A DNA stretch of 64,000 bases. Origin: Escherichia coli. GTDB taxonomy: Bacteria > Pseudomonadota > Gammaproteobacteria > Enterobacterales > Enterobacteriaceae. Of the stretch, positions 13,380 to 41,332 are shown in pieces. The notes below the pieces were generated by a model. That model saw only the letters and a list, made by a program, of their open reading frames with translations, ran no database searches and was not told where the DNA came from. Where the stretch lies: the NCBI RefSeq assembly GCF_001677475.2, contig NZ_CP015229.1; one strand, given 5' to 3'. A program made the position numbers and the translations under genes. Position 1 is the stretch's first letter. The number at the start of each line of letters is the position of its first letter.

Positions 13380-13420
13380 TGTAAACCGCTATTCACAGCG
13401 CATCGGGAGGTTGGCAGCGA

Positions 13421-14353
13421 TTAATTCTCCCGATGCAGTAAATCCTGATAGATCCCCGTTAATATGCCATTTGGCGAAAATTGTTTTTTAATCCACTGCG
13501 TCACCTGACCGGTGGCAGAGTGCTGGGTCGCCAGTAACATGCGTGAATCCTGGCGCGGATTATGGATTTGTCGGGTAACCAGCAGGGATTGCGCCATCGC
13601 CTCACGGACCATGTAATCCGGCAAAAAACCAATTCCTTCGCCTAAAATCTGGCACTGACATTTGGTGTTGAAATCTGGCACCAGAATCGACTCCTGCCCA
13701 TGCAGCAACCAGCCCACTTTTTTATTAATCGTATGCGCGGTGTCCTCCACCATGATATTAGGGTAGAGACGCAGCTGGCTTTCGGCGATCGGCTCCGGCA
13801 CAAAGGCTAATGGGTGATCCGGGGCGATAGCAAAAGCCCAGCGAATTGCGCCAATCTCCGTGTAATCAATGCCGCCGCCGTCCAGCAGTGTGTCGGGCGC
13901 GCCGATAGCAATATTCGCCTGATTATTAATAATCGCATCCCAGACGCCGTTATACACTTCGGTCGTCACGGTAATCTGGCAGGTTGGAAACTGCTTTTTC
14001 AGTACCTGTAATAAGCGTGCGGTGTGTTTGGGCGTATAAAGCAGTTGGTTAATACAAATGCGCACCCGTGCTTCTATACCCTGCGAAATAGTATCGATGC
14101 TGCGTTTGATGGCGTGAAAATCATTCAGCAGGTCGGTAGCTTTGCGGAAAAAATAACGCCCGGACTCCGTTAACTCAATGCTTCGGGTACTGCGAGTGAA
14201 CAGCACCACATCCAGCCCCGTCTCCATTCGCTTGATGGTGTAGCTAATGGCGGAAGTGGTTAAACCCAACTCTTCTGCGGCTTTACTGAAACTGCCAAAA
14301 CGCGCAGCGGTAGTAAATGCCAACAGATTCTCTTCGGTAAAAATTGAGTTCAT
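13421..14353 (-). CDS. yahB: LysR-family transcriptional regulator
   Basis: 310 aa; N-terminal LysR HTH (FSKAAEELGLTTSAISYTIKRME) and substrate-binding domain. Confidence 0.8.
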   Translation of the reverse strand: MNSIFTEENLLAFTTAARFGSFSKAAEELGLTTSAISYTIKRMETGLDVVLFTRSTRSIELTESGRYFFRKATDLLNDFHAIKRSIDTISQGIEARVRICINQLLYTPKHTARLLQVLKKQFPTCQITVTTEVYNGVWDAIINNQANIAIGAPDTLLDGGGIDYTEIGAIRWAFAIAPDHPLAFVPEPIAESQLRLYPNIMVEDTAHTINKKVGWLLHGQESILVPDFNTKCQCQILGEGIGFLPDYMVREAMAQSLLVTRQIHNPRQDSRMLLATQHSATGQVTQWIKKQFSPNGILTGIYQDLLHREN

Positions 14354-14444
14354 TAAACCATTCCCGCCATTATCTAATATGAATTTCTCCAGCCATGACT
14401 GTAGAGGTATCGGTTAAAGATAGATAATCATTTTTGAATAACTT

Positions 14445-14942
14445 TTAATACCCGTCGCGTTTAGTCGTCGCTTCGCTTAATTTTTGTCCGCCATATTCTG
14501 AAATTATCCCCACGCAGTTACCCGCCAGATAACCCAGTAATGTCACCGTCCAGTTCATCCCGCTGGCAAAAAATAGCGTCATGCCGAGAAAGCCTCCGGG
14601 AATAAAAGACAATAAACCGAAACGTCCTTGCCAGACCACCACCGCCGAGAAGGGTACAGTCATAATCACGCTCGCCCAGAACGTGGACAATCCACTCACC
14701 GAGGCCAGCCAACCGGCAGCCAGCGCGGCGAAAAACGCCCACACCATCCCGGAATAATTAACCGCCAGGCTTCTGATAAACCCCGATTTACCGCCGCCTG
14801 CGGCATAAAAACTGCAAAAGGCGACGAAGCCAATGGTTCCTAATAATTCCCATCCCTGAGAGAGCCCGACATGTGAAGACACTAACTGCCAAAGCCCTGC
14901 ACAAATACCGACGGTGACACCCGTTGCCGTGAGTCCGTTCAT
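14445..14942 (-). CDS. yahC: small inner-membrane protein
   Basis: 165-aa hydrophobic ORF with several predicted TM helices; K-12 backbone position. Confidence 0.7.
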   Translation of the reverse strand: MNGLTATGVTVGICAGLWQLVSSHVGLSQGWELLGTIGFVAFCSFYAAGGGKSGFIRSLAVNYSGMVWAFFAALAAGWLASVSGLSTFWASVIMTVPFSAVVVWQGRFGLLSFIPGGFLGMTLFFASGMNWTVTLLGYLAGNCVGIISEYGGQKLSEATTKRDGY

Positions 14943-15199
14943 CTTGTTCCCCTCTTGTTAGACATGGACGAAAGCTACTCTTACATGTGCAGACTATAGA
15001 GAAATAAAACCTGATTGAGTGAAAGGGTATCGGGTCAAAGAAACAAATATTGCACTACCGCACACTGCGAAAAGATTGTTGAACATCATTCAACAAAAAG
15101 GCGAAATACGGCGAATTAAATTTAAGCGGGTTCTTTTATCAGATTATCGTTGCTATTCTCAATTCATCGAAAACAGCCACAAAAACCAGGGGAATGTGA

Positions 15200-15805
15200 A
15201 TGACTATAAAAAATCTACCTGCCGACTATTTATTGGCTGCACAACAGGGTGATATCGATAAAGTAAAAACCTGCCTTGCGCTGGGTGTCGATATTAATAC
15301 CTGCGATCGTCAGGGGAAAACGGCAATTACGCTGGCAAGTTTATATCAGCAATATGCTTGCGTTCAGGCATTAATTGACGCCGGAGCGGATATTAATAAA
15401 CAAGATCATACCTGTTTAAATCCTTTTTTAATTAGCTGTCTGAACGATGATTTAACCCTGTTACGGATTATTTTACCGGCTAAACCCGATCTTAATTGCG
15501 TCACCCGTTTTGGCGGTGTCGGCCTGACGCCTGCCTGTGAAAAAGGCCATTTAAGTATTGTAAAAGAGCTTTTGGCGCATACGGAGATTAACGTTAACCA
15601 GACTAACCATGTTGGCTGGACGCCGCTACTGGAAGCAATTGTGCTTAATGATGGCGGGATTAAACAGCAGGCGATTGTCCAGTTATTGCTTGAACACGGT
15701 GCCAGCCCGCACATGACGGATAAATATGGCAAAACGCCGCTGGAACTGGCGCGGGAACGAGGCTTTGAAGAGATTGCGCAGTTACTGATTGCCGCAGGTG
15801 CATAA
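15200..15805 (+). CDS. yahD: ankyrin-repeat protein
   Basis: 201 aa with repeated ankyrin motifs (GKTAITLAS..., GWTPLLEAIVLN..., GKTPLELARERG). Confidence 0.8.
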   Translation: MTIKNLPADYLLAAQQGDIDKVKTCLALGVDINTCDRQGKTAITLASLYQQYACVQALIDAGADINKQDHTCLNPFLISCLNDDLTLLRIILPAKPDLNCVTRFGGVGLTPACEKGHLSIVKELLAHTEINVNQTNHVGWTPLLEAIVLNDGGIKQQAIVQLLLEHGASPHMTDKYGKTPLELARERGFEEIAQLLIAAGA

Positions 15806-15844
15806 ACCGGGAGGCTTGCTATCAACACACCAGAAAGACGGTGT

Positions 15845-16708
15845 GTGTGGGCGCTAACTGCGGATGCTGATTTTCTGGCGCAGCGGGGGCAAGGACAGGT
15901 TGAACAGGTCTTTGCCAGAGCGGTAAATATCGCACTTCCGGCCCGCCAGCAGTTGCTGACGCTGCTTTGTGAAGAGTACGACAATGCGCCAAACAGTTGT
16001 CGGTTGGCACTCACTCACTTTGATGGTCTGTTCCGGCATGGTGATAAGGTTCAGTTTGACGATCAAGGCATTACGGTTGGTCAACATCTTCATATAGAGA
16101 TGAGTCGTTGTCGGCGTTGGCTGTCCCCAACCTTGCAAATGACCGCTGTGAATTTTCACCTTATCGCCTGGCAACAGTGGCATGACATTATTCATCAGCA
16201 CCTGGGGGAAAATGAAACACTGTTTAATTATTGCGGCGATAATCCGTTTTATCAGGCGTTAAATAAAGAATTACATATTAAACGACGGGCAGTTATTCAG
16301 GCCGTAAACGATAAACAAAATATCGCCTCAGCAGTCGCCAGTATGATGGGCTTAGGGATTGGCCTTACGCCATCAGCCGACGATTATTTAACAGGTCTGG
16401 CGCTTATTTTATTTATTTCCGGACATCCGGCGGAAAAATACAAAGAAGAATTTTATCTCGGTCTGCAACGCGGCAGAAATAATACCACGTTATTAAGTGC
16501 CATAACGCTGGAAGCCGCATTACAACAACGCTGCCGGGAAAATATTCATCGTTTTATTCATAACATTATTTATGACATCCCTGGGAACGCAACTCAGGCA
16601 ATAGAAAAAATTAAACATATTGGCTCCAGTTCCGGCTGCGACATGCTGTATGGCATGGCCGATGGTTGTGCGCTGAGCCAAACCTACGGAGGGAATTATG
16701 TCAGTTAA
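15845..16708 (+). CDS. yahE: conserved hypothetical protein
   Basis: 287-aa ORF overlapping the start of yahF by 11 nt; backbone position. Confidence 0.7.
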   Translation: MWALTADADFLAQRGQGQVEQVFARAVNIALPARQQLLTLLCEEYDNAPNSCRLALTHFDGLFRHGDKVQFDDQGITVGQHLHIEMSRCRRWLSPTLQMTAVNFHLIAWQQWHDIIHQHLGENETLFNYCGDNPFYQALNKELHIKRRAVIQAVNDKQNIASAVASMMGLGIGLTPSADDYLTGLALILFISGHPAEKYKEEFYLGLQRGRNNTTLLSAITLEAALQQRCRENIHRFIHNIIYDIPGNATQAIEKIKHIGSSSGCDMLYGMADGCALSQTYGGNYVS

Positions 16709-18245
16709 AATAGTCATTAAACCGAATACCTATTTTGATTCTGTCTCGCTGATGTCTATCTCCACGCGTGCAAATAAACTCGACGGCGTCGAGCAGGCAT
16801 TTGTGGCGATGGCGACCGAAATGAACAAAGGCGTACTGAAGAATTTAGGGCTGCTGACGCCGGAGCTGGAGCAGGCGAAAAACGGCGACCTGATGATTGT
16901 CATCAATGGTAAATCGGGTGCGGACAACGAGCAGTTGCTGGTGGAGATTGAAGAACTGTTCAACACCAAAGCGCAAAGCGGCTCGCACGAGGCGCGTTAC
17001 GCCACTATTGCCAGCGCCAAAAAGCATATCCCGGAAAGTAACCTGGCAGTGATTTCGGTCAACGGCCTGTTTGCCGCTCGTGAAGCGCGTCAGGCGCTGC
17101 AAAATGATCTCAACGTGATGCTGTTTTCCGATAACGTCTCGGTTGAAGATGAACTGGCTCTCAAGCAGCTGGCCCACGAAAAAGGGCTGCTGATGATGGG
17201 GCCAGACTGCGGCACGGCGATCATCAACGGCGCGGCGCTCTGCTTTGGTAACGCCGTGCGTCGCGGCAACATCGGTATTGTTGGCGCATCCGGCACCGGT
17301 AGCCAGGAACTGAGCGTCCGCATTCATGAATTTGGCGGCGGCGTTTCGCAACTGATTGGCACCGGTGGGCGCGACCTGAGCGAGAAAATCGGCGGCCTGA
17401 TGATGCTCGACGCCATCGGGATGCTGGAAAACGATCCGCAAACTGAAATCATTGTGCTTATCTCCAAACCGCCTGCGCCTGCGGTGGCCCGCAAAGTGCT
17501 GGAACGCGCACGTGCCTGCCGCAAGCCGGTGGTGGTCTGCTTCCTCGGTCGTGGCGAAACGCCAGTGGATGAGCAGGGGCTACAGTTTGCTCGCGGCAGC
17601 AAAGAAGCGGCGCTGAAAGCGGTAATGCTCTCCGGCGTGAAACAGGAACATCTCGAGCTGCATACGCTGAACCAGCCGTTGATTGCTGACGTGCGCGCTC
17701 GCCTGCAACCGCAGCAGAAATACATTCGTGGCCTGTTCTGCGGCGGTACGCTGTGTGACGAAACCATGTTCGCGGTGATGGAAAAACACGGCGATGTCTA
17801 CAGCAACATCCAGCCCGATCCTGAATTCCGCCTGAAAGATATCAACCGCAGCGTCAAACATACCTTCCTCGACTTTGGCGATGACGACTTCACCAACGGT
17901 AAGCCGCATCCAATGATTGACCCCACCAACCGTATCAGCCGCTTGATCGAAGAGGCGCGCGATCCAGAAGTGGCGGTGATCGTGATGGATTTTGTGCTCG
18001 GATTTGGATCGCATGAAGATCCGGTTGGTTCCACCATTGAAGCGATCAAAGAAGCGAAAGCGATCGCCGCTGCCGAAGGACGCGAGTTGATCATTCTCGC
18101 CTATGTGCTGGGTACCGATCTTGATACGCCATCGTTAGAACAACAAAGCCAGATGCTGCTTGATGCCGGAGTGATTCTGGCGAGCAGCAGCACCAATACC
18201 GGATTGCTGGCGCGTGAATTTATCTGCAAAGGGGAGGAAGCCTGA
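16698..18245 (+). CDS. yahF: FdrA-like acyl-CoA synthetase (NDP-forming) / succinyl-CoA-ligase-alpha-like protein
   Basis: 515 aa; CoA-ligase-like glycine-rich motifs (IGIVGASGTG, CGGTLCDE); stop overlaps the yahG start. Confidence 0.8.
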   Translation: MSVKIVIKPNTYFDSVSLMSISTRANKLDGVEQAFVAMATEMNKGVLKNLGLLTPELEQAKNGDLMIVINGKSGADNEQLLVEIEELFNTKAQSGSHEARYATIASAKKHIPESNLAVISVNGLFAAREARQALQNDLNVMLFSDNVSVEDELALKQLAHEKGLLMMGPDCGTAIINGAALCFGNAVRRGNIGIVGASGTGSQELSVRIHEFGGGVSQLIGTGGRDLSEKIGGLMMLDAIGMLENDPQTEIIVLISKPPAPAVARKVLERARACRKPVVVCFLGRGETPVDEQGLQFARGSKEAALKAVMLSGVKQEHLELHTLNQPLIADVRARLQPQQKYIRGLFCGGTLCDETMFAVMEKHGDVYSNIQPDPEFRLKDINRSVKHTFLDFGDDDFTNGKPHPMIDPTNRISRLIEEARDPEVAVIVMDFVLGFGSHEDPVGSTIEAIKEAKAIAAAEGRELIILAYVLGTDLDTPSLEQQSQMLLDAGVILASSSTNTGLLAREFICKGEEA

Positions 18246-19663
18246 TGAGCCAGTCACTGTTTAGCCAACCATTGAACGTTATTAACGTCGGCATCGCCAT
18301 GTTTAGCGATGACCTGAAAAAGCAGCATGTAGAAGTGACTCAACTCGACTGGACGCCGCCGGGGCAGGGCAATATGCAGGTGGTGCAGGCGCTGGACAAC
18401 ATTGCCGATTCGCCGCTGGCAGACAAAATCGCCGCCGCTAACCAGCAGGCGCTGGAACGCATTATCCAGTCGCATCCGGTGCTGATTGGTTTTGATCAGG
18501 CGATTAACGTGGTGCCGGGCATGACGCCGAAAACCATTCTTCACGCCGGGCCGCCAGTGACCTGGGAAAAAATGTGCGGCGCGATGAAAGGCGCGGTCAC
18601 CGGGGCGCTGGTGTTCGAAGGGCTGGCGAAAGACCTCGACGAGGCGGCTGAACTGGCGGCTTCCGGGGAGATCACCTTCTCGCCGTGCCACGAACACGAC
18701 TGTGTGGGATCGATGGCGGGTGTTACCTCGGCCTCGATGTTTATGCACATCGTAAAAAACAAAACCTACGGCAACATCGCTTATACCAACATGAGCGAGC
18801 AGATGGCGAAGATTTTGCGTATGGGCGCCAACGACCAGAGCGTGATCGACCGCCTCAACTGGATGCGCGATGTGCAGGGACCAATGCTGCGCGACGCGAT
18901 GAAAATTATCGGTGAGATCGATCTGCGCTTAATGCTGGCGCAGGCGCTGCATATGGGCGATGAGTGTCATAACCGCAATAACGCCGGGACGACGCTGCTG
19001 ATTCAGGCGCTGACGCCGGGGATTATTCAGGCGGGCTATTCCGTCGAGCAACAGCGCGAAGTGTTTGAGTTTGTCGCCAGCAGCGACTACTTCTCCGGCC
19101 CGACGTGGATGGCGATGTGTAAAGCGGCGATGGATGCGGCGCACGGCATCGAATACAGCACCGTGGTCACCACGATGGCGCGTAACGGCGTCGAGTTCGG
19201 TCTGCGGGTCAGCGGATTACCGGGGCAATGGTTTACCGGTCCGGCGCAGCAGGTGATCGGCCCGATGTTTGCCGGTTATAAGCCGGAAGATTCGGGGCTG
19301 GATATCGGCGACAGCGCCATCACCGAAACCTACGGCATTGGCGGATTTGCTATGGCGACCGCGCCCGCTATCGTCGCGCTGGTGGGCGGCACGGTGGAAG
19401 AGGCTATCGATTTCTCCCGTCAGATGCGTGAAATCACTCTCGGCGAAAACCCTAACGTGACCATTCCGCTGCTCGGTTTTATGGGTGTGCCGACGGCAAT
19501 CGACATCACCCGCGTGGGTAGCAGTGGCATTCTGCCGGTGATCAACACCGCCATCGCTCATAAAGATGCGGGCATCGGCATGATTGGCGCGGGCATTGTG
19601 CATCCACCATTCGCCTGCTTCGAAAAAGCCATTCTTGGCTGGTGCGAACGTTACGGCATCTGA
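18245..19663 (+). CDS. yahG: conserved protein of unknown function, partner of yahF
   Basis: 472-aa ORF translationally coupled to yahF (ATGA overlap). Confidence 0.75.
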   Translation: MSQSLFSQPLNVINVGIAMFSDDLKKQHVEVTQLDWTPPGQGNMQVVQALDNIADSPLADKIAAANQQALERIIQSHPVLIGFDQAINVVPGMTPKTILHAGPPVTWEKMCGAMKGAVTGALVFEGLAKDLDEAAELAASGEITFSPCHEHDCVGSMAGVTSASMFMHIVKNKTYGNIAYTNMSEQMAKILRMGANDQSVIDRLNWMRDVQGPMLRDAMKIIGEIDLRLMLAQALHMGDECHNRNNAGTTLLIQALTPGIIQAGYSVEQQREVFEFVASSDYFSGPTWMAMCKAAMDAAHGIEYSTVVTTMARNGVEFGLRVSGLPGQWFTGPAQQVIGPMFAGYKPEDSGLDIGDSAITETYGIGGFAMATAPAIVALVGGTVEEAIDFSRQMREITLGENPNVTIPLLGFMGVPTAIDITRVGSSGILPVINTAIAHKDAGIGMIGAGIVHPPFACFEKAILGWCERYGI

Positions 19664-19669
19664 CATGCA

Positions 19670-19886
19670 AAGTGCGCGTTGTCTCTGCCGGATGCGGCGT
19701 GAACGCCTTATCCGGCCTACGAGTGGCGCAAGAACCTGTAGGCCTGATAAGCGTAGCGCATCAGGCATTTTTCACGATTGCCGGATGCGGCGTGAACGCC
19801 TTATCCGGTCTACGAATGGCACAAGAATCTGTAGGCCTGATAAGCGTAGCGCATCAGGCAATTTGGCGTTGGTCATAACCCCATCA
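19670..19886. repeat. REP/BIME array (two tandem ~105-bp units)
   Basis: Tandem near-identical units containing GCCGGATGCGGCGTGAACGCCTTATCCGG and CTGTAGGCCTGATAAGCGTAGCGCATCAGGC palindromic REP motifs. Confidence 0.75.
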
Positions 19887-19909
19887 CCCTCTGTAGCGGA
19901 CATAACAAT

Positions 19910-20860
19910 ATGAAAGAACTTGTGGTCGTTGCCATTGGTGGCAACAGCATTATCAAAGATAACGCCAGCCAGTCGATTGAGCATCAGGCGGAGGCGGTGA
20001 AGGCCGTCGCCGATACGGTGCTGGAAATGCTGGCTTCCGATTACGACATTGTGCTGACCCACGGCAACGGACCGCAGGTCGGTTTGGATTTACGCCGCGC
20101 GGAGATTGCCCACGAGCGCGAAGGGTTGCCCTTAACGCCGCTGGCGAACTGTGTGGCGGATACGCAAGGTGGCATTGGCTATCTGATCCAACAGGCGCTG
20201 AACAACCGGCTGGCACGCCACGGCGAGAAAAAAGCCGTCACCGTGGTGACTCAGGTGGAAGTGGATAAAAACGATCCGGGTTTTGCTCATCCCACCAAGC
20301 CCATCGGCGCATTCTTCAGTGAATGCCAGCGTGACGAATTACAAAAGGCAAACCCTGAATGGCGTTTTGTTGAAGATGCCGGACGGGGCTATCGCCGCGT
20401 GGTCGCCTCGCCGGAACCGAAACGTATTGTCGAAGCACCGGCCATTGAGGCATTGATCCAACAAGGCTTTGTGGTCATCGGCGCGGGCGGTGGCGGCATT
20501 CCGGTGGTGCGCAGTGAAGCGGGGGATTACCAAAGCGTGGACGCGGTTATCGACAAAGATCTCTCTACCGCGCTACTGGCCCGCGAAATTCACGCCGACA
20601 TTCTGGTGATCACCACTGGCGTGGAAAAAGTGTGCATTCACTTTGGCAAACCCCAGCAGCAGGCGCTCGATCGGGTGGATATTGCCACCATGACCCGCTA
20701 TATGCAGGAAGGGCATTTCCCGCCCGGCAGCATGTTGCCAAAAATCATTGCCAGCCTGACGTTCCTGGAACAGGGCGGCAAAGAAGTGATTATCACCTCG
20801 CCGGAATGCCTGCCTGCGGCGCTGCGCGGTGAAACGGGCACCCATATCATTAAAACGTAA
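19910..20860 (+). CDS. yahI: carbamate kinase-like protein
   Basis: 316 aa; amino-acid-kinase fold motifs (VVAIGGN..., ILVITTGVEKV) typical of carbamate kinases. Confidence 0.85.
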   Translation: MKELVVVAIGGNSIIKDNASQSIEHQAEAVKAVADTVLEMLASDYDIVLTHGNGPQVGLDLRRAEIAHEREGLPLTPLANCVADTQGGIGYLIQQALNNRLARHGEKKAVTVVTQVEVDKNDPGFAHPTKPIGAFFSECQRDELQKANPEWRFVEDAGRGYRRVVASPEPKRIVEAPAIEALIQQGFVVIGAGGGGIPVVRSEAGDYQSVDAVIDKDLSTALLAREIHADILVITTGVEKVCIHFGKPQQQALDRVDIATMTRYMQEGHFPPGSMLPKIIASLTFLEQGGKEVIITSPECLPAALRGETGTHIIKT

Positions 20861-20869
20861 GGACGTAAG

Positions 20870-22252
20870 ATGAAAGAAAGCAATAGCCGCCGTGAGTTTC
20901 TGAGCCAGAGCGGTAAGATGGTCACCGCCGCCGCGCTGTTTGGTACCTCTGTGCCGCTCGCCCATGCGGCAGTCTCTGGCACAACCCACTGCGAGGCAAA
21001 TAACACCATGAAAATCACTGACCCGCACTACTATCTCGACAACGTGCTGCTGGAAACCGGTTTTGACTACGAAAACGGTGTGGCGGTGCAGACCCGCACG
21101 ACACGCCAGACCGTGGAGATTCAGGACGGCAAAATTGTTGCCCTGCGCGAGAATAAGCAGCATCCGGACGCCACGCTGCCGCACTATGACGCTGGCGGTA
21201 AGCTGATGCTGCCCACCACCCGCGACATGCATATTCATCTCGACAAAACCTTCTACGGCGGGCCGTGGCGCTCGCTCAATCGTCCGGCAGGCACCACCAT
21301 CCAGGACATGATCACGCTTGAGCAGAAAATGCTGCCGGAGTTGCAACCGTACACTCAGGAGCGGGCGGAAAAACTGATCGATTTATTGCAGTCGAAAGGC
21401 ACCACCATTGCCCGTAGCCACTGCAATATCGAACCGGTTTCCGGCCTGAAAAATCTGCATAACTTACAGGCGGTGCTGGCACGACGTCAGGCGGGCTTCG
21501 AGTGTGAAATTGTCGCCTTCCCGCAGCACGGTTTACTGCTGTCGAAATCGGAGCCCTTAATGCGTGAAGCGATGCAGGCAGGGGCGCATTACGTCGGCGG
21601 GCTGGACCCGACCAGTGTCGATGGCGCGATGGAAAAATCCCTCGACACCATGTTCCAGATTGCGCTGGACTACGACAAAGGCGTCGATATTCACCTGCAC
21701 GAAACCACTCCGGCGGGCGTGGCAGCCATCAATTATATGGTTGAAACGGTAGAGAAAACGCCGCAGCTTAAAGGCAAGCTGACCATCAGCCACGCCTTTG
21801 CGCTGGCTACGCTCAACGAGCAACAGGTCGTTGAGCTGGCGCACCGGATGGCGGCGCAGCAAATTTCTATCGCCTCGACGGTGCCGATTGGCACGTTGCA
21901 TATGCCGCTCAAACAGCTACACGACAAAGGTGTAAAAGTGATGACCGGCACCGACAGCGTTATCGACCACTGGTCGCCTTACGGCCTGGGCGACATGCTG
22001 GAAAAAGCCAATCTGTATGCGCAGCTCTATATTCGCCCTAACGAACAGAATTTGTCCCGCTCGCTGTTTTTAGCCACTGGTGATGTGTTGCCGCTCAACG
22101 AAAAGGGCGAGCGTGTCTGGCCTAAAGCGCAGGATGACGCCAGCTTTGTGCTGGTGGACGCCTCCTGTTCTGCCGAGGCAGTGGCGCGTATCTCGCCGAG
22201 AGCCGCAACGTTCCATAAAGGGCAACTGGTGTGGGGGAGTGTGGCAGGTTGA
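20870..22252 (+). CDS. yahJ: metal-dependent amidohydrolase/deaminase with Tat-like signal
   Basis: 460 aa; N-terminal SRREFL twin-arginine-like motif and hydrophobic region; amidohydrolase His motifs (HIHLDK, HLHE). Confidence 0.8.
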   Translation: MKESNSRREFLSQSGKMVTAAALFGTSVPLAHAAVSGTTHCEANNTMKITDPHYYLDNVLLETGFDYENGVAVQTRTTRQTVEIQDGKIVALRENKQHPDATLPHYDAGGKLMLPTTRDMHIHLDKTFYGGPWRSLNRPAGTTIQDMITLEQKMLPELQPYTQERAEKLIDLLQSKGTTIARSHCNIEPVSGLKNLHNLQAVLARRQAGFECEIVAFPQHGLLLSKSEPLMREAMQAGAHYVGGLDPTSVDGAMEKSLDTMFQIALDYDKGVDIHLHETTPAGVAAINYMVETVEKTPQLKGKLTISHAFALATLNEQQVVELAHRMAAQQISIASTVPIGTLHMPLKQLHDKGVKVMTGTDSVIDHWSPYGLGDMLEKANLYAQLYIRPNEQNLSRSLFLATGDVLPLNEKGERVWPKAQDDASFVLVDASCSAEAVARISPRAATFHKGQLVWGSVAG

Positions 22253-22549
22253 TACGCATTTAATATGTCTGCAACGGTGAACAGTAAGAGATTTAAGCCC
22301 CAGGGAGTGGGGCGGCAATGGTTGCTAATGAATCATCCTGAACTTTATAATCTCCAGGCATAATTTCCAGGGGATTATTTGAGAGAAATACACAAAAGTG
22401 AGTTTTAACAAAGGTATTTATCAGGCCATAAATGTGACCTGCTTCGGATAAAAAAGATTAAACATAGAAAAACCAATGATACTCTTGCTGATGGTTACCA
22501 ACAGTAATTAAGATGTGATTTGTTTTTCCGTAATCGCGAAAATATTCTC

Positions 22550-22960
22550 ATGACCATAAAAGAAAAAATCTTACAAAAATATCCCCATGCTTCCTTTTGT
22601 ACTTTTGGCGATTCAGCAGCGTTGGCCGATCACCTCGCAACGTTGATTGCGACTGGTGTTAAAACTGCTTCCTGTGGTTCGCTGGCGGGATGTATTGAAG
22701 ACAACGCATTTCCGCTGATTGGTGAGTATAAGATTGTAGAAAATAGCCGTGGTGAGCCTGTCTGTGTTATCAGAGTTATTGGCCTGCATTTACTGCGCTT
22801 TTCTGATGTCACCGCGGAGCTTGCCCGTAAGGAAGGTGAAGGTGACCTCAGTCTTGAATATTGGCGTAATGAACACCGTCGTTTTTTCCAGGCAGAAGGA
22901 AGCTATTCACCAGAAATGGACGTTATCTTTGAAGAATATGCCCTTATTGACGTTGTGTAG
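22550..22960 (+). CDS. hypothetical small protein (possible ASCH-like fold)
   Basis: ORF starting MTIKEKILQKYPHASF; weak SD; absent from the K-12 backbone as I recall it; fold assignment is a guess. Confidence 0.4.
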   Translation: MTIKEKILQKYPHASFCTFGDSAALADHLATLIATGVKTASCGSLAGCIEDNAFPLIGEYKIVENSRGEPVCVIRVIGLHLLRFSDVTAELARKEGEGDLSLEYWRNEHRRFFQAEGSYSPEMDVIFEEYALIDVV

Positions 22961-23210
22961 ATATCTATTTATCTACGTGAAATAAGCTCACAAACATAAA
23001 ATGTCGCTAATTTTGTTTATCTTGCTATTTTTTACGTGATGAATATCACACTTATTGTTGCTGCCCGTTTTGTCCATATTTATAACCATATTTTTAATAG
23101 CTGCCTGAAATAGGGCTGTTTATTCTGCATAAAAATATTCGAAAATTCTTATTCTCTCCAGCGCGCTAATTTGGGCGAACACTTCCTGACTACCCTGCAA
23201 TGAGGCTGAA

Positions 23211-24197
23211 ATGATGAATAAACGTTTTGTTATCAATATGGTGTCTTCGCTGTTATTAGGCGCTGCGCTAATTTCTGCGCCGCTCCAGGCAGCGGAAAAA
23301 GTCGTGGTGAATATCTCTAAAGTCGATGGTATGCCGTGGTTTAATCGCATGGGCGAAGGTGTGGTCGAGGCGGGTAAAGCCTTTGGTGTTAATGCGTCAC
23401 AGGTGGGGCCTTCAAGTACTGATGCTCCGCAACAGGTTAAAATCATTGAGGATTTAATCGCCCGTAAGGTTAATGCAATTACTATTGTGCCAAACGATGC
23501 CAACGTGCTGGAACCGGTATTCAAAAAAGCGCGAGATGCCGGAATTGTGGTTCTGACCAACGAATCCCCCGGTCAGCCAAGTGCTAACTGGGATATCGAA
23601 ATCATTGATAACGAAAAATTTGCCGCTGAATATGTTGAGCATATGGCGAAACGCATGGGTGGCAAGGGCGGTTATGTGATTTACGTGGGTAGTTTGACCG
23701 TGCCGCAGCATAACTTATGGGCTGACTTGCTGGTGAAATACCAGAAAGAGCATTACCCGGATATGCATGAAGTTACCCGCCGCATGCCGGTTGCCGAGAG
23801 TGTGGATGACTCACGTCGTACCACACTGGACCTGATGAAAACCTATCCTGACTTGAAAGCGGTTGTCTCCTTTGGTTCAAACGGTCCGATTGGCGCGGGA
23901 CGTGCGGTGAAAGAGAAACGGGCGAAAAATAAAGTCGCAGTCTATGGCATGATGATCCCTTCACAGGCGGCATCACTGATTAAAAGTGGTGATATCACCG
24001 AAGGGATTACTTACGATCCGGCCTCTGCAGGTTACGCACTCGCAGCCGTCGCCAGCACGTTGCTGAAGGGTGAAGAGATCAAACCTGGATTAGAAATGCA
24101 GAATCTGGGTAAGGCCGACGTAGATATGGATAAGCGAATTATCCGTTTCCATAAGGTATTACTGGTCAACAAAGACAATATCGACTCACTTTATTAA
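23211..24197 (+). CDS. ABC transporter periplasmic sugar-binding protein (LsrB/RbsB-like)
   Basis: 328 aa with signal peptide (…LLLGAALISAPLQAAEK) and type-I periplasmic binding fold; first gene of a 4-gene ABC cluster. Confidence 0.8.
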   Translation: MMNKRFVINMVSSLLLGAALISAPLQAAEKVVVNISKVDGMPWFNRMGEGVVEAGKAFGVNASQVGPSSTDAPQQVKIIEDLIARKVNAITIVPNDANVLEPVFKKARDAGIVVLTNESPGQPSANWDIEIIDNEKFAAEYVEHMAKRMGGKGGYVIYVGSLTVPQHNLWADLLVKYQKEHYPDMHEVTRRMPVAESVDDSRRTTLDLMKTYPDLKAVVSFGSNGPIGAGRAVKEKRAKNKVAVYGMMIPSQAASLIKSGDITEGITYDPASAGYALAAVASTLLKGEEIKPGLEMQNLGKADVDMDKRIIRFHKVLLVNKDNIDSLY

Positions 24198-24245
24198 TCC
24201 ATTTCTTCGGGGCGAAAGCCCCGATTCTTATTGCCAGGGGATGTT

Positions 24246-25730
24246 ATGGAAACCTTCCTTTCCCTTCGTCATATCAACAAAACGTTTCATGCCACGCGAG
24301 CGCTGCGCGATGTTTCTCTCGACTTTATGTCGGGTGAAGTGCACTGCCTTGCCGGGCAAAACGGCTGTGGTAAATCGACGTTGATTAAAATTATGTCCGG
24401 TGTTTATCGCCCGGATGAGGGAGCGGAAATTACGCTTGGTGGAAAAAACTGGTCAAAGCTGACACCCGCCGCTTCGGTGGCGCAGGGGATTCAGGTGATT
24501 TATCAGGACCTCTCTTTATTTCCTAACCTGAGTGTCTGGGAGAATATCGCCGTGAATCACTATCACCACGGTCTGTTTGTTAACCGCCGTCGTCTGCGTG
24601 AGGTGGCGCAGGTGGCAATGACCAGTATTAACGTCACATTGCCACTGGATACGCTCGTTTCTGAGCTTTCAATTGCCCGCTGTCAGCTGGTGGCAATTTG
24701 CCGTGCACTGGCGCAGGACGCACGGTTGATCGTGATGGATGAACCAACCGCTTCGCTGACCCATCAGGAAGTGCAAGGGTTATTACAGGTGGTGCATCAA
24801 TTGCGGGAACGTGGGATCTGCGTGGTTTTCGTCAGTCATCGTCTGGAAGAAGTGATGGAAGTTTCCGACCGTATTTCAGTGCTGAAAGATGGTGAGCTGG
24901 TCGGGACTTTTCCGGCTGCAGAGATGACCACAAAACAACTCGGTTTCCTGATGACCGGCCAGGAGTTTGAATATCAGGTGCGAGAGTTGTGGCAGGGAAA
25001 ATCCAGCACCCCAGTGCTGGAGGTGCGTAATTTAAGTCGTCATGGGGAATATCAAAATATTAACTTGCGGGTGGAAGCGGGCGAAGTGGTGTCGATTGTT
25101 GGCCTGCTTGGTGCGGGGCGCACGGAATTATGTCTGAGTCTGTTTGGTATGACCCGACCGGATGCTGGCGAGATCCTCATCAACGGCCAGCCGGTTACAC
25201 TGCAAAGTAACCAGGACGCCATCCGCCACGGTATTGGTTATGTTTCGGAAGATCGCATGTCGCGCGGTTTGGTGATGGCGCAATCTATTGAAGACAACAT
25301 CATTAGCACTGTTTTTCACAAGGTAAAAGATCGCTTCGGCTTTCTGAGTGAAGCTAAAGTGCGAGACCTGGTGGACAGGCTAATCAAGGCATTGACCATC
25401 AAAGTCTCTGATCCTCATCTCCCGGTGAATACGCTTTCTGGTGGTAACGCGCAGCGAGTATCGATCGCCAAATGGCTGGCGATTGGGCCACGACTGTTGA
25501 TTCTCGATAGCCCGACAGTCGGTGTTGATATCGCCAACAAAGCAGGAATATACGGCATTATCAGCGATCTGGCGGCTCATGGCATTGCGGTATTGATGAT
25601 CTGCGATGAAATTGAAGAAGCGTGGTATCAAAGCCACCGGATTTTGGTAATGCAAAAAGGTCAGATCACCCATAGCTTCCTGCCTGACAGCAGTTCTCAG
25701 GCCAGGATTGCGGAGGTGGTAAATGGCTGA
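24246..25730 (+). CDS. ABC transporter ATPase with duplicated nucleotide-binding domains
   Basis: Two Walker A motifs (GQNGCGKST; GLLGAGRTEL) and two signature/Walker B regions; ~495 aa as in ribose/galactose-type importers. Confidence 0.85.
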   Translation: METFLSLRHINKTFHATRALRDVSLDFMSGEVHCLAGQNGCGKSTLIKIMSGVYRPDEGAEITLGGKNWSKLTPAASVAQGIQVIYQDLSLFPNLSVWENIAVNHYHHGLFVNRRRLREVAQVAMTSINVTLPLDTLVSELSIARCQLVAICRALAQDARLIVMDEPTASLTHQEVQGLLQVVHQLRERGICVVFVSHRLEEVMEVSDRISVLKDGELVGTFPAAEMTTKQLGFLMTGQEFEYQVRELWQGKSSTPVLEVRNLSRHGEYQNINLRVEAGEVVSIVGLLGAGRTELCLSLFGMTRPDAGEILINGQPVTLQSNQDAIRHGIGYVSEDRMSRGLVMAQSIEDNIISTVFHKVKDRFGFLSEAKVRDLVDRLIKALTIKVSDPHLPVNTLSGGNAQRVSIAKWLAIGPRLLILDSPTVGVDIANKAGIYGIISDLAAHGIAVLMICDEIEEAWYQSHRILVMQKGQITHSFLPDSSSQARIAEVVNG

Positions 25731-26694
25731 ACTGAAAAAACGCCATGAATTCTGGCTGGCATTACTGATTGTGGTGCTGTTTGTTGGCCTTGCCTGGCGC
25801 AGCGACGAGTTTCTGACATTCGGTAATTTGTACGATCTCGCCAATAACTATGCCATGTTGACTATTCTCGCCTGTGGTTTGTTTGTGGTGTTAATTTCCG
25901 GTGGGATTGATATTTCGTTTCCGGCAATGACCATCATTGCGCAATACGGCATGGTGCTGTTGCTGCAAAAAATTGGTGGCAACTTTGCTGTCGCGTTTGC
26001 CCTGGCGGGCGGCATCGGCATTTTACTTGGCTTAATAAACGCCTTACTGGTTAATCGCCTACGGGTGCCGTCTATCATCATCACCATTTCGACGCTGAAT
26101 ATTTTCTATGGCCTGCTGTTATGGTTGAGTAAAGGTGTGTGGCTGTACGACTTTCCGCCGTGGTTTGAGCAGGGGGTAATGTTGTTCAAGTACACCGATG
26201 CTGACGGCTATGACTATGGCCTTGGTCTGCCGCTGATCGCCATGATTACGGTGGTGCTGCTGACAGCGTTTATCATGAATTTCACCAGTGTAGGGCGCAA
26301 AATTTATGCCCTTGGCGGGAATCGTGAATCAGCCAGTCGCATCGGCTTTAGTGTGCTGAAACTGCAACTTTTCGTCTACGGCTATATGGGATTGATGTCT
26401 GGTGCTGCGGGTGTAGTGCAGTCGTGGACGGTGATGACTGTCGCCCCCGATTCTCTTCTGGGTTATGAGCTGACAGTACTGGCTGCGGTGGTGCTTGGCG
26501 GCACTAGTTTGCTCGGCGGGCGCGGCACGTTAACCGGTACTTTGCTCGGCGTGGTGTTGTTGGCAGTGATGCAAAACGGGCTAAATTTATTGGGAGTCTC
26601 GTCTTACTGGCAAACATTGATCACAGGCATCATCATCGTTGCCAGCATTAGCGCCACGGCGTGGAGTCAGCATCAGAACCGGAGTCTGCTATGA
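25723..26694 (+). CDS. ABC transporter permease
   Basis: 323-aa polytopic membrane ORF overlapping the ATPase stop. Confidence 0.8.
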   Translation: MAELKKRHEFWLALLIVVLFVGLAWRSDEFLTFGNLYDLANNYAMLTILACGLFVVLISGGIDISFPAMTIIAQYGMVLLLQKIGGNFAVAFALAGGIGILLGLINALLVNRLRVPSIIITISTLNIFYGLLLWLSKGVWLYDFPPWFEQGVMLFKYTDADGYDYGLGLPLIAMITVVLLTAFIMNFTSVGRKIYALGGNRESASRIGFSVLKLQLFVYGYMGLMSGAAGVVQSWTVMTVAPDSLLGYELTVLAAVVLGGTSLLGGRGTLTGTLLGVVLLAVMQNGLNLLGVSSYWQTLITGIIIVASISATAWSQHQNRSLL

Positions 26695-27647
26695 AAAAAT
26701 CGTGGCGTAATAACGTTGAGTTTTACTTGATCGGCCTGCTGGTACTAACTGTTGCCGCCTTCAGCATTACTATGCCGGAGATTTTCTGGTCGATAAGTAA
26801 TTTCCAGTCCGTCGCTTCGCAAATGCCCGTGCTGGGCATTCTGGCGTTGGCTATGGCGGTGACCATGCTTTGCGGTGGCATTAACTTGTCAATTATTGCC
26901 ACTGCTAACGCCTGTTCACTGGTGATGGCGTGGGTGGCGACTCAGTATCCACCGGGTATTGCTACGGTTGTCGCTACGCTGCTGGCGGGCGCTGGCGCGG
27001 CGGTGATAATCGGTTTATGTAACGGCGTATTGATTGCTGGTATTCGAGTGTCGCCAATTCTTGCAACGCTTGGGATGATGACATTGCTCAAAGGGGTAAA
27101 TATTCTGGTGACAGGCGGTAGCGCCATTGCCAATTATCCCTCATGGGTGCTGTGGTTGAATCATGCACAGTGGTTCGGTATTCCGCTACCGATGTGGTTG
27201 TTTACCGCAGTGGCGCTGGGGCTGTGGATATTGCTGGAGAAAACGCCGCTCGGTAAAGCCATTTATCTGATTGGTTCTAACGAACGAGCAACACTTTACT
27301 CCGGTATTAACACTCGTCGGGTGCTGATATGGGTGTATGTCATTTCCGCCTTGCTTTGTGCGGTAGCGGCATTTTTGATGATGTCGAAACTCAACTCGGC
27401 TAAGGCCTCTTATGGCGAATCGTACTTGCTGGTGTCAATCCTCGCGGCAGTACTCGGCGGGGTTAATCCGGACGGCGGCAGCGGGCGGATAATTGGTATG
27501 GTGCTGGCGCTGTTTCTTCTGCAAATTATTGAAAGCGGCTTCAATATTCTCGGTATAAGCCCCTACCTGACGATGGCCTTATGGGGAACGTTGCTGCTCT
27601 GTTTCATTCAGGCTCGCGGCATGTTGGGGCTGGATCGGGTGGTTTAA
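26691..27647 (+). CDS. ABC transporter permease
   Basis: Polytopic membrane ORF; ATG after a GGAG SD overlaps the upstream stop (ATGA coupling). Confidence 0.8.
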   Translation: MKKSWRNNVEFYLIGLLVLTVAAFSITMPEIFWSISNFQSVASQMPVLGILALAMAVTMLCGGINLSIIATANACSLVMAWVATQYPPGIATVVATLLAGAGAAVIIGLCNGVLIAGIRVSPILATLGMMTLLKGVNILVTGGSAIANYPSWVLWLNHAQWFGIPLPMWLFTAVALGLWILLEKTPLGKAIYLIGSNERATLYSGINTRRVLIWVYVISALLCAVAAFLMMSKLNSAKASYGESYLLVSILAAVLGGVNPDGGSGRIIGMVLALFLLQIIESGFNILGISPYLTMALWGTLLLCFIQARGMLGLDRVV

Positions 27648-27733
27648 ATATTGGCTATATTCAATGGACGCGTTTTGCCGCGATGACATATCAGGCATCG
27701 CCAAATACACATAGCTAATCAGGAGTAAACACA

Positions 27734-28783
27734 ATGAAGATCAAAGCTGTTGGTGCATATTCCGCTAAACAACCACTTGAACCGATGGATATCACCCGGC
27801 GTGAACCGGGACCGCATGATGTCAAAATCGAAATCGCTTACTGTGGCGTCTGCCATTCCGATATCCACCAGGTCCGTTCCGAGTGGGCGGGGACGGTTTA
27901 TCCCTGCGTGCCGGGCCATGAAATTGTAGGGCGCGTGGTAGCTGTTGGTGATCAGGTAGAAAAATATGCGCCGGGCGATCTGGTTGGTGTCGGCTGCATT
28001 GTCGATAGTTGTAAACATTGCGAAGAGTGTGAAGACGGGCTGGAAAACTACTGTGATCACATGACCGGCACCTATAACTCGCCGACGCCGGACGAACCGG
28101 GCCATACTCTGGGCGGCTACTCACAACAGATCGTCGTTCATGAGCGATATGTTCTGCGTATTCGTCACCCGCAAGAGCAGCTGGCGGCGGTGGCTCCTTT
28201 GTTGTGTGCAGGGATCACCACATACTCGCCGCTACGTCACTGGCAGGCCGGGCCGGGTAAAAAAGTGGGCGTGGTCGGCATCGGCGGTCTGGGACATATG
28301 GGGATTAAGCTGGCCCACGCGATGGGGGCGCATGTGGTGGCATTTACCACTTCTGAGGCAAAACGCGAAGCGGCAAAAGCCCTGGGGGCCGATGAAGTTG
28401 TTAACTCACGCAATGCCGATGAGATGGCGGCTCATCTCAAGAGTTTCGATTTCATTTTGAATACAGTAGCTGCGCCACATAATCTCGACGATTTTACCAC
28501 CTTGCTGAAGCGTGATGGCACCATGACGCTGGTTGGTGCGCCTGCGACACCGCATAAATCACCGGAAGTTTTCAACCTGATCATGAAACGCCGTGCGATA
28601 GCCGGTTCTATGATTGGCGGCATTCCAGAAACACAGGAGATGCTCGATTTTTGCGCCGAACATGGCATCGTGGCTGATATAGAGATGATTCGGGTCGATC
28701 AAATTAATGAAGCCTATGAGCGAATGCTGCGTGGTGATGTGAAATATCGTTTTGTTATCGATAATCGCACACTAACAGACTGA
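27734..28783 (+). CDS. yahK: Zn-dependent NADPH aldehyde reductase / alcohol dehydrogenase
   Basis: 349 aa; zinc-ADH motifs (GVCHSDIH, GHEIVG) and Rossmann GxGxxG (GIGGLGHMG). Confidence 0.85.
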   Translation: MKIKAVGAYSAKQPLEPMDITRREPGPHDVKIEIAYCGVCHSDIHQVRSEWAGTVYPCVPGHEIVGRVVAVGDQVEKYAPGDLVGVGCIVDSCKHCEECEDGLENYCDHMTGTYNSPTPDEPGHTLGGYSQQIVVHERYVLRIRHPQEQLAAVAPLLCAGITTYSPLRHWQAGPGKKVGVVGIGGLGHMGIKLAHAMGAHVVAFTTSEAKREAAKALGADEVVNSRNADEMAAHLKSFDFILNTVAAPHNLDDFTTLLKRDGTMTLVGAPATPHKSPEVFNLIMKRRAIAGSMIGGIPETQEMLDFCAEHGIVADIEMIRVDQINEAYERMLRGDVKYRFVIDNRTLTD

Positions 28784-37123: not shown

Positions 37124-37162
37124 GCAAACAGCGGTAAGGCGTAAGTTCAACAGGAGAGCATT

Positions 37163-39049: not shown

Positions 39050-39320
39050 AGTATTGTCGGATGCGTCGCGCGCCGCATCCGACACCATGCGCAGATGCCT
39101 GATGCGACGCTGGCGCGTCTTATCATGCCTACAGGTCTGAACCGTAGGTCGGATAAGGCGCTCGCGCCGCATCCGACACCGTGCGCAGATGCCTGATGCG
39201 ACGCTGGCGCGTCTTATCATGCCTACAAGTCTGAACCGTAGGTCGGATAAGGCGCTCGCGCCGCATCCGACACCGTGCGCAGATGCCTGATGCGACGCTG
39301 GCGCGTCTTATCATGCCTAC
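39050..39320. repeat. REP/BIME array (three tandem ~119-bp units)
   Basis: Three near-identical copies of ...GCCGCATCCGACACCGTGCGCAGATGCCTGATGCGACGCTGGCGCGTCTTATCATGCCTAC... after prpE. Confidence 0.75.
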
Positions 39321-39472
39321 CCACTGTTTTTACACCGATAATTTTTCCCCCACCTTTTTGCGCTCATTCATATAAAAAATATATTTCCCCACGGAAACGA
39401 TTGCTTTTTATTTTCAGATGAATAGAATGCGGCGGATTTTTTGGGTTTCAAACAGCAAAAAGGGGGAATTTC

Positions 39473-39836
39473 GTGTCGCAAGATAACAACTTTAGCCAGG
39501 GGCCAGTCCCGCAGTCGGCGCGGAAAGGGGTATTGGCATTGACGTTCGTCATGCTGGGATTAACCTTCTTTTCCGCCAGTATGTGGACCGGCGGCACTCT
39601 CGGAACCGGTCTTAGCTATCATGATTTCTTCCTCGCAGTTCTCATCGGTAATCTTCTCCTCGGTATTTACACTTCATTTCTTGGTTACATTGGCGCAAAA
39701 ACCGGCCTGACCACTCATCTTCTTGCTCGCTTCTCGTTTGGTGTTAAAGGCTCATGGCTGCCTTCACTGCTGCTGGGCGGCACCCAGGTTGGCTGGTTTG
39801 GCGTTGGCGTGGCGATGTTTGCTATTCCGGTGGGCA
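39473..39836 (+). pseudogene. codB: cytosine permease CodB, 5' fragment (first ~121 codons) cut by element insertion
   Basis: Frame MSQDNNFSQGPVPQSARKG... matches the CodB N-terminus up to ...AIPVG, then diverges into element sequence and stops. Confidence 0.85.
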
Positions 39837-39921
39837 CCACATAGGTCAATACCACCACAATAAAATTTTCCAATAAAAAAGCCCCATCACAAGGACAGGG
39901 CTATAGAATCAATTACTTACA

Positions 39922-41279: not shown

Positions 41280-41332
41280 TTAAATCGATGAATTGAACTA
41301 TAGATGATGGTCGTTTTCAAAGAGGATTATCT

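Follow-up and report, generated by a model that had tools for sequence, protein, structure and literature searches.

The closest described relative of the locus analysed here is the Accessory L-arabinose Uptake system (Aau) of EHEC O157:H7, the subject of two papers by Cottam et al. (Nat Commun 2024, PMC11127945, and 2025, PMC12307932). In the first, a reporter carrying about 300 bp from upstream of the EHEC aau operon was induced by L-arabinose and lost its activity in an araC deletion mutant, while a mutant lacking aau was outcompeted 10-100-fold in mice (PMC11127945). The second revealed that the binding protein AauA has a Kd of 1.98 uM for D-ribulose versus 598 uM for L-arabinose, that binding of D-ribulose can be followed by ITC and that, in the crystal structure (PDB 9I1M), the ligand is alpha-D-ribulofuranose, contacted by Lys37, Trp43, Glu118, His167, Glu196 and Ser223 (PMC12307932). 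It also showed that growth on D-ribulose depends on AraB, which phosphorylates the imported sugar (PMC12307932). A second system, the Rbl locus of Citrobacter rodentium (ROD_24811-61), is likewise of CUT2 architecture and handles the same sugar, with about 60% identity between its subunits and those of Aau. However, loci of the Rbl type respond to D-ribulose and encode, downstream, an FGGY pentulose kinase of their own (TIGR01315, 695 bits) as well as a protein with a SIS domain.

The window, a stretch of 64,000 nucleotides from Escherichia coli (contig NZ_CP015229.1), contains a locus lying, as in O157:H7, between yahJ (ending at 22252) and yahK (starting at 27734), with the same gene order and 98.2% nucleotide identity over 5480 nt. 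The ORF list places five same-strand reading frames at 22520-27650, namely a small ASCH-domain gene and a four-gene ABC importer:

22550..22960 (ORF 22520-22960), plus strand: ASCH-domain gene, 136 aa; Pfam ASCH 79 bits against a cut-off of 21
23211..24197, plus strand: aauA, periplasmic D-ribulose-binding protein, 328 aa; near-identical to PDB 9I1M, Peripla_BP_4 214 bits
24207..24224, plus strand: G+C-rich hairpin followed by a T-rich tract in the aauA-aauB gap; terminator-like scan, 7 pairs, 6 of them G-C
24246..25730 (ORF 24231-25730), plus strand: aauB, fused two-domain ABC ATPase, 494 aa from the RefSeq-equivalent ATG; two ABC_tran domains
25723..26694, plus strand: aauC, permease 1, 323 aa; BPD_transp_2 118 bits
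26691..27647 (ORF 26661-27647), plus strand: aauD, permease 2, 318 aa from the RefSeq ATG; BPD_transp_2 110 bits

The original prediction had described a compact operon with overlapping stops and starts, made of a binding protein, a double-domain ATPase and two permeases and accompanied by a small extra gene between yahJ and yahK. The ORF list and the Pfam matches over the block (ASCH, Peripla_BP_4, two ABC_tran and two BPD_transp_2, all far above their cut-offs) bear this out, the small gene being the one with the ASCH domain, and the predicted binding-protein C-terminus (...NKDNIDSLY) is that of ORF 23211-24197. aauB and aauC overlap by 8 nt, aauC and aauD are joined by an ATGA overlap (given the RefSeq-equivalent ATG at 26691), and 86 nt separate the end of aauD from yahK. 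The proteins display the CUT2 architecture, that is, a Peripla_BP_4 binding protein, a fused ATPase of about 500 aa and BPD_transp_2 permeases. The hairpin at 24207..24224 would probably act as an intra-operon attenuator or stabiliser, to the benefit of binding-protein expression. The operon includes no regulator gene, and an Rfam search of 21800-28200 returned no ncRNA or riboswitch at E <= 0.1. The host lineage differs from EHEC: the yahD-yahJ flank of the window is at most 97.0% identical to that of any complete E. coli genome. Elsewhere in the window, positions 36000-48000 hold a divergent prophage.

The AauA encoded in the window, whose signal peptide ends in ...PLQA immediately before AEK, is identical to PDB 9I1M at 327 of 328 residues (E = 3.8e-214 in a PDB sequence search), the sole difference being D200 instead of V200, and it retains all six ligand-contacting residues (K37, W43, E118, H167, E196 and S223). 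Relative to the O157 copies, AauC carries one and AauD three residue differences. AauB matches ABC_tran with 186 bits over two stretches, with Walker A at residue 37 and Walker B at residues 161 and 417; the canonical Walker A is found in the first half only and the LSGG signature in the second half only, an asymmetry between the halves that is typical of CUT2 ATPases. Its gene runs through 494 continuous codons without an internal stop. In contrast, O157 strains of the TUV93-0/EDL933 type carry a premature stop at nucleotide 259 of aauB (PMC11127945), which in O157:H7 TT12A corresponds to a CAG to TAG change at codon 87 (Q87*). Because AauA is near-identical to the crystallised protein and keeps its six ligand residues, the gene order and flanks are the same and the ATPase is intact, we identify the four transporter genes as aauABCD of E. 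coli O-island 17, which encode the Accessory L-arabinose Uptake system, with a probability of roughly 0.9. The block is the previously characterised importer (AauABCD, Z0415-Z0419 in OI-17 of O157), and thus a real and already known system rather than a new one.

This identity settles much of the question of substrate, which the original prediction had called unknown while suggesting an AI-2-like compound, a furanose or a pentose. The reading of the transporter family was right, and the furanose or pentose part of the guess agrees with alpha-D-ribulofuranose and its Kd of about 2 uM; the substrate is not unknown, since AauA corresponds to 9I1M, a published D-ribulose binder, and the homology of the binding protein therefore does not lead to a non-sugar substrate class. 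The AI-2-like part fails. RefSeq names the product of aauA "autoinducer 2 ABC transporter substrate-binding protein", and LsrB structures are among the distant PDB matches (E about 1e-21 to 1e-24), but none of the NCBIfam Lsr equivalogs comes close to its cut-off (LsrB 111 bits versus 384, LsrA 385 versus 586, LsrC 115 versus 388, LsrD 146 versus 500), lsrK, lsrR, lsrF and lsrG are all missing from the neighbourhood, and both the crystal structure and ITC point to D-ribulose (PMC12307932). An importer of autoinducer-2 is effectively refuted by the Lsr scores and by the absence of the lsr partner genes. The RefSeq name, unsupported given the LsrB score, is misleading and should be read with caution. 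The rhamnose-binding protein RhaS was likewise rejected: it is the best named model, yet it reaches 137 bits against a cut-off of 342. LsrACDB and RhaSTPQ share with Aau the CUT2 family and the Peripla_BP_4 fold class, and RhaS and LsrB are the top named models, but their equivalog cut-offs are far off and their ligands and genomic partners differ.

A different role was put forward in 2024, according to which Aau would primarily be a high-capacity or scavenging L-arabinose importer, with D-ribulose binding as a side activity. It is in accord with this proposal that aau is induced by L-arabinose only, through AraC, and that its overexpression partly rescues an araE deletion mutant on L-arabinose (PMC11127945); in addition, the PBAD-like promoter is conserved and, in other genera, the orthologous operon adjoins araC, araB and araFGH, so that a role in L-arabinose metabolism itself would also fit. 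However, the affinity of AauA for L-arabinose is about 300-fold lower than that for D-ribulose, the sugar with which the protein was crystallised (PMC12307932), deletion of aau does not impair growth on L-arabinose (PMC11127945), and the related unit of Pasteurellaceae has neither araA nor araD next to it. Taken together, these observations make a primary role in L-arabinose import quite improbable.

The ASCH-domain gene shares the accessory segment with the transporter but is probably no component of it, and is most likely an unrelated passenger. Its protein ("ASCH domain-containing protein" in RefSeq) has relatives in PDB entries 1T62 and 3S9X, and the ASCH family is tied to RNA or nucleoside chemistry, not to sugars. 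It might nonetheless be imagined as a functional fifth component, for instance an enzyme that acts on the sugar once it has reached the cytoplasm, as the gene lies on the same strand in the same accessory segment and accompanies aau in all the full-length E. coli matches listed. Against this, the 250-nt spacer before aauA holds a promoter module belonging to aau, the ASCH gene is itself preceded by a promoter-like site (22322-22351), tblastn found no such gene in any of the 78 non-E. coli loci, and one locus (L031) pairs aau with an ASCH remnant. Moreover, plasmid-borne aauABCD alone provides the published function (PMC11127945). A fifth component of this kind is thus very improbable.

The spacer between the ASCH gene and aauA contains a set of predicted regulatory elements, all on the strand of the operon:

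23035..23050, plus strand: predicted CRP site cGTGAtgaataTCACA; 9 of 10 core positions match, read from the sequence
23062..23099, plus strand: predicted AraC site, made of I1-like TGCCCGTTTTGTCCATA (23062-23078), a 4-nt spacer and I2-like TAACCATATTTTTAATA (23083-23099)
23073-23078, plus strand: TCCATA box of I1
23121..23126, plus strand: candidate -10 TATTCT, with a weak -35 overlapping the end of I2; placed by reading the sequence and by comparison with the geometry of PBAD

The two predicted AraC half-sites are 17-bp direct repeats 21 bp apart, with the proximal one abutting the -35 and the CRP site just upstream of the pair. This is the layout of K-12 PBAD (TAGCATTTTTATCCATA-AGAT-TAGCGGATCCTACCTGA), where CRP is likewise followed by I1 and, after a 4-nt spacer, by an I2 that abuts the -35, although the offset from CRP to I1 is 29 nt there and 27 nt in the window. 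The half-sites were judged against those of PBAD, verified from the sequence. Since the I1 box of the window reads TGCC where the consensus has TAGC, and three core positions of I2 are mismatched, these assignments rest mainly on conservation across species. Fifty-three unique orthologous promoters yield the consensus taGCnnntTTnTCCATa-4nt-TAgCannaAntTAcaTa, and the combined CRP-AraC module is present in 55 of 61 Aau-type loci, with its offset from CRP to the AraC half-site fixed at 27-28 nt, versus none of 20 Rbl-type loci (recovered at 58-61% binding-protein identity) and 13 of 12200 shuffled sequences (0.1%). In the other six Aau-type loci (two from Providencia, one from Serratia and three from Vibrio), no CRP-AraC pair was detected within 400 nt at the thresholds used. 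The predicted AraC site falls inside the fragment of about 300 bp whose activity depends on AraC and L-arabinose (PMC11127945), and AraC and CRP would be expected to bind at the sites mapped here. Because neither PMC11127945 nor PMC12307932 reports direct binding of AraC to the aau promoter, control by AraC could also be indirect. Induction by AraC and L-arabinose, experimentally documented for Aau (PMC11127945), is a trait shared with the transporters of the AraC regulon (AraFGH, AraE and YtfQRT-YjfF), from which Aau differs in preferring D-ribulose over L-arabinose.

The original prediction also held that the block is absent from K-12, and this is indeed the case: the yahJ-yahK spacer of MG1655 measures 374 nt, matches only 5% of the block and does not contain these genes. 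What it does contain are the 3'-terminal 50 nt of the ASCH gene, a diverged version of the ASCH-aauA spacer that extends as far as the right half of the CRP site, and the 3'-terminal 72 nt of aauD, annotated as a gene fragment. Read from these sequences, the block is not an insertion relative to K-12; it is K-12 that has lost it and carries the deletion scars. Among 5426 complete E. coli genomes, 2211 hold the block at a coverage of at least 80% and 2759 hold the scar allele. As the scar copies in these 2759 genomes vary from 94.7 to 100% identity to that of K-12, the loss is old.

The opposite scenario, in which the block would be a recent horizontal insertion in the window strain and K-12 would represent the ancestral empty site, is unlikely on this evidence. 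It would agree with the designation of the block as O-island 17 and its description as "horizontally acquired" (PMC11127945), with a G+C content of 0.39-0.53 versus about 0.57 in the yahG-yahJ flank, and with the distribution of relatives: the nearest binding proteins outside Escherichia come from Klebsiella, Franconibacter and Mangrovibacter (90-92% identity), and no other named Escherichia species appears among the 80 loci kept. However, a K-12 spacer with remnants of ASCH, of the ASCH-aauA spacer and of aauD arises solely by deletion, the same scar is widespread and diversified, and the L031 lineage carries at the same site a copy that is merely 91.7% identical. Neither the ORF list nor the sequence of the ASCH-aauA spacer shows integrase or repeat features. 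An ancient acquisition by the ancestor of E. coli is compatible with the scar, the identity values and the L031 copy.

The neighbourhoods of the orthologous operons bear on the age of the regulation. An AraC equivalog (384-491 bits, cut-off 208) adjoins the operon in 26 loci, with araB and araFGH also alongside in Limnobaculum, Budvicia and Leminorella; this linkage makes control by AraC look ancestral. We lean towards the view that such control would be an inherited trait and not a recent "hijack" by EHEC, with the Aau type being an old member of the AraC/CRP regulon in Enterobacterales and Pasteurellaceae, the E. coli version a reduced one that depends on AraC and AraB of the core genome, and about half of the species, K-12 among them, having lost it through two old deletions. 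The unit of Pasteurellaceae consists of araC, the transporter and an FGGY kinase that corresponds to no NCBIfam equivalog and gave no match at 1e-10 in a PDB sequence search. As araA and araD are not adjacent, this set of genes is enough for the use of a ketopentose, though not of L-arabinose, and it may plausibly be a self-contained ketopentose module, as part of the same ancestral picture. In the window, the dedicated FGGY D-ribulokinase and the SIS gene are absent downstream of the permeases, where yahK comes next; this pair of genes occurs only at the loci whose binding proteins are 58-61% identical.

The genes in the window match the characterised ones exactly or almost exactly, and they form an intact operon with a conserved promoter module. 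By analogy with EHEC, from which come the affinity, the structure, the dependence on AraC and L-arabinose, the dependence on AraB and the fitness in mice, the copy of the window strain would behave like the EHEC one. Briefly, AauA, once exported to the periplasm, would capture alpha-D-ribulofuranose between Trp43 and His167 and dock on the AauC/AauD permease heterodimer, and AauB, with two nucleotide-binding domains in a single polypeptide, would power import by ATP hydrolysis. In the cytoplasm, D-ribulose would be phosphorylated by the L-ribulokinase AraB and enter the pentose phosphate pathway. In the presence of L-arabinose, AraC, an activator encoded in the core genome, would turn the operon on at a PBAD-like promoter located 112-176 nt upstream of aauA and made of the CRP site, the two direct-repeat AraC half-sites and a weak -35. 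As the flanks are at most about 97% identical to those of complete genomes, the account given for regulation in this lineage is an extrapolation from EHEC.

The published work has established that Aau gives EHEC a 10-100-fold competitive edge in the mouse gut and ties dietary L-arabinose to the use of D-ribulose. The additions made here are of modest value: a map of AraC and CRP sites, which is concrete and testable and would explain the reported AraC dependence; a deletion in K-12; AraC control and araC linkage that would predate E. coli; and a warning about the misnamed binding protein. For the species, they mean that K-12 and about half of E. coli would have undergone a deletion, rather than the carriers a recent gain. 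For the family, a corollary of ancestral AraC control is that these transporters may also import L-ribulose, the natural substrate of AraB.

The segment between yahJ (ending at 22252) and yahK (starting at 27734) carries, at 22520-27650, five ORFs, all co-oriented, as follows from the ORF listing of the window:

22550 (ATG) to 22960, + strand: ASCH-domain gene, 136 codons (ORF open from 22520); Pfam ASCH, 79 bits
23211-24197, + strand: aauA, binding protein, 328 codons; Pfam Peripla_BP_4
24246-25730, + strand: aauB, ATPase, 494 codons (ORF open from 24231); two Pfam ABC_tran domains
25723-26694, + strand: aauC, permease 1; Pfam BPD_transp_2
26691-27647, + strand: aauD, permease 2; Pfam BPD_transp_2

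All these Pfam assignments (ASCH, Peripla_BP_4, two ABC_tran and two BPD_transp_2) lie far over threshold and, together with the ORF listing, they bear out the importer-plus-small-gene arrangement proposed in the original prediction, down to the binding-protein C-terminus (...NKDNIDSLY), which was found in the ORF at 23211-24197. There is an 8-nt overlap between the ATPase gene and that of permease 1, and one of 4 nt (ATGA) between the two permease genes. The block has a G+C content of 0.39-0.53, lower than the ~0.57 of the yahG-yahJ flank, and an Rfam search of the region detected no RNA family. The ASCH gene, whose protein has 1T62 and 3S9X as PDB relatives, is preceded by a promoter-like site at 22322-22351 and is separated from aauA by a 250-nt spacer; among 80 loci, no copy of it adjoins the transporter in those from other species than E. 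coli, and it is regarded as a passenger.

The binding protein encoded in the window differs by a single residue (D200 here, V200 in the structure) from PDB 9I1M, that is, AauA (Cottam et al., Nat Commun 2025, PMC12307932), while its AauC and AauD differ from those of the O157:H7 Aau at one and three residues, respectively. These sequences identify the locus as Aau (‘Accessory L-arabinose Uptake’; Z0415-Z0419 on EHEC O-island 17), which was first described in Nat Commun in 2024 (PMC11127945). These authors showed that L-arabinose was the sole inducer of a ~300 bp EHEC promoter fragment, that promoter activity was lost in an araC deletion mutant and regained with araC in trans, and that an aau deletion mutant was outcompeted 10-100-fold in streptomycin-treated mice (PMC11127945). 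Subsequent work put the Kd of AauA at 1.98 uM for D-ribulose, against 598 uM for L-arabinose; in the crystal structure, alpha-D-ribulose is stacked between Trp43 and His167 and hydrogen-bonded by Lys37, Glu118, Glu196 and Ser223; D-ribulose was consumed only with L-arabinose present as the Aau inducer, and its use required the ribulokinase AraB (PMC12307932). All six ligand-contact residues are kept in the window copy. The reading of the block as an accessory sugar ABC importer is thus supported by the Aau identity and the near-identical AauA, and the suggestion of a furanose or pentose substrate was right, since AauA binds D-ribulose; the system itself is not new, having already been characterized genetically, biochemically and structurally. 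The alternative suggestion of an AI-2-like substrate, which is echoed by the RefSeq product name of the binding protein (‘autoinducer 2 ABC transporter substrate-binding protein’), did not hold: the NCBIfam equivalogs for LsrB (111 bits, cut-off 384), LsrA, LsrC and LsrD all scored below their cut-offs, and no lsr partner genes are present at the window locus. RhaS was the best named NCBIfam model, yet it reached 137 bits against a cut-off of 342 and was likewise rejected.

No binding site upstream of aau was mapped in either Aau paper (PMC11127945, PMC12307932). Reading the sequence upstream of aauA, the following elements are predicted:

23035-23050, + strand: CRP-like site, cGTGAtgaataTCACA, followed by an 11-nt spacer
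23062-23078, + strand: AraC I1-like half-site, TGCCCGTTTTGTCCATA, with a TCCATA box at 23073-23078, followed by a 4-nt spacer
23083-23099, + strand: AraC I2-like half-site, TAACCATATTTTTAATA
23121-23126, + strand: candidate -10 hexamer, TATTCT, with the transcription start predicted near 23133

This order is that of the K-12 araBAD promoter, in which the CRP site is followed by TAGCATTTTTATCCATA, AGAT, TAGCGGATCCTACCTGA and the -35 element, and the predicted module sits within the ~300 bp fragment of the published reporter. In 61 Aau-type loci from GTDB representative genomes, the 400-nt stretch preceding the binding-protein gene was scanned for a CRP-like site 27-29 nt ahead of an AraC-like half-site. 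Such a pair was present in 55 of them, the two sites being offset by 27 or 28 nt every time, as compared with 13 of 12200 shuffled upstream regions; scanned in the same manner, none of the 20 loci of the Rbl type (the D-ribulose locus type of Citrobacter rodentium) had it. The half-site consensus derived from 53 unique sequences was taGCnnntTTnTCCATa, 4 nt, TAgCannaAntTAcaTa, and flanking positions were not conserved.

As originally proposed, the block is missing between yahJ and yahK in K-12, where the spacer in MG1655 is just 374 nt. By megablast against 5426 complete E. coli genomes, the block was found at ≥80% coverage in 2211, while K-12 and many others matched just 5% of it. Aligned to the window, the K-12 spacer falls into four pieces: window 22245-22313, directly past yahJ; 22911-22982, with the 50 nt at the 3' end of the ASCH gene and another 22 nt; then, in diverged form, the sequence up to ~23055, ending in the right half of the predicted CRP site; and 27576-27743, with the final 72 nt of aauD (annotated by RefSeq as a partial gene without N-terminus) and the spacer up to yahK. 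Hence, the K-12 state derives from two deletions, of ~0.6 kb and ~4.5 kb. Used as a query, this scar gave a one-piece match in 2759 of the 5426 genomes, with 94.7-100% identity to the K-12 copy, so the loss is old and shared. The two deletions are separable events, because L031, an orthologous locus from a divergent record labelled ‘E. coli’ (NZ_JAATUR010000022.1, locus 1-8000; block only 91.7% identical to that of the window), has aau intact and the ASCH gene reduced to a 3'-end remnant. Upstream in L031, aldo-keto reductase-like genes and others occupy the place of yahG-yahJ.

The core flank yahD-yahJ (14000-22250) reaches ≤97.0% identity to any of the 5426 genomes and the block (22253-27733) up to 98.7%; therefore, the window seems to represent a divergent lineage of E. 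coli or Escherichia, its accessory block being more E. coli-like than its core flank. The prp operon (prpD, prpE) is followed, at ~40000-48000, by prophage-like genes, many of them hypothetical, including a Rha family regulator and a terminase gpA endonuclease subunit, with just 89-92% identity to complete E. coli genomes; among these genomes, no record matched 36000-48000 at ≥80% coverage. The yahG-yahI spacer (~19584-19913) contains tandem REP/BIME-like repeats that give rise to two spurious ORFs, whose translations repeat ‘CRMRRERLIR...TSG...RICRPDKRSASG’, and RefSeq annotates its K-12 equivalent as the small gene yahH. A 4748-bp contig labelled ‘MAG: Bacteroidales bacterium’ (SFEK01000152.1) matches the window aau operon over its full length at 98.4% identity and is, almost certainly, mis-binned E. 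coli sequence.

The window aauB is intact. In O157:H7 TT12A, the ATPase gene (locus 5993-7477) is a pseudogene in which codon 87 is changed from CAG to TAG (Q87*) at nucleotide 259, the position of the inactivating SNP of TUV93-0 (PMC11127945). As the two coincide, many O157:H7 isolates probably have a non-functional Aau.

The ORFs of 80 loci were clustered and scored against NCBIfam. An AraC equivalog (384-491 bits, cut-off 208) adjoins the operon in 26 loci, mostly directly upstream on the same strand, being downstream and divergent in two Providencia loci; in Limnobaculum, Budvicia and Leminorella, the Aau-type operon comes after araB, araF, araG, araH and araC, in that order. In Pasteurellaceae (among them Mannheimia, Histophilus, Actinobacillus and Rodentibacter), araC and the transporter form a unit with an FGGY kinase of ~531 aa, always 3' of the operon (L051 and L061, among other orthologous loci; locus ~12350-13945). 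This kinase fell short of every NCBIfam equivalog (for XylB, 103 bits where 380 are required) and had no PDB sequence relative at 1e-10; the transporter-plus-kinase unit would, we infer, fit a ketopentose substrate. Where the binding protein is 58-61% identical, the loci have a pentulose kinase of the FGGY family (TIGR01315, 695 bits) together with a SIS-domain gene, matching the published Rbl type. The closest non-Escherichia binding proteins, from Klebsiella, Franconibacter and Mangrovibacter, are 90-92% identical, and the label ‘horizontally acquired’ given to the block (PMC11127945) may hold for an older acquisition. The presence of araC next to the operon in other genera makes AraC control of this transporter family look ancestral. 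We would give somewhat better than even odds, about 55%, to Aau being an old member of the AraC regulon, as opposed to having hijacked AraC after a recent acquisition by EHEC.
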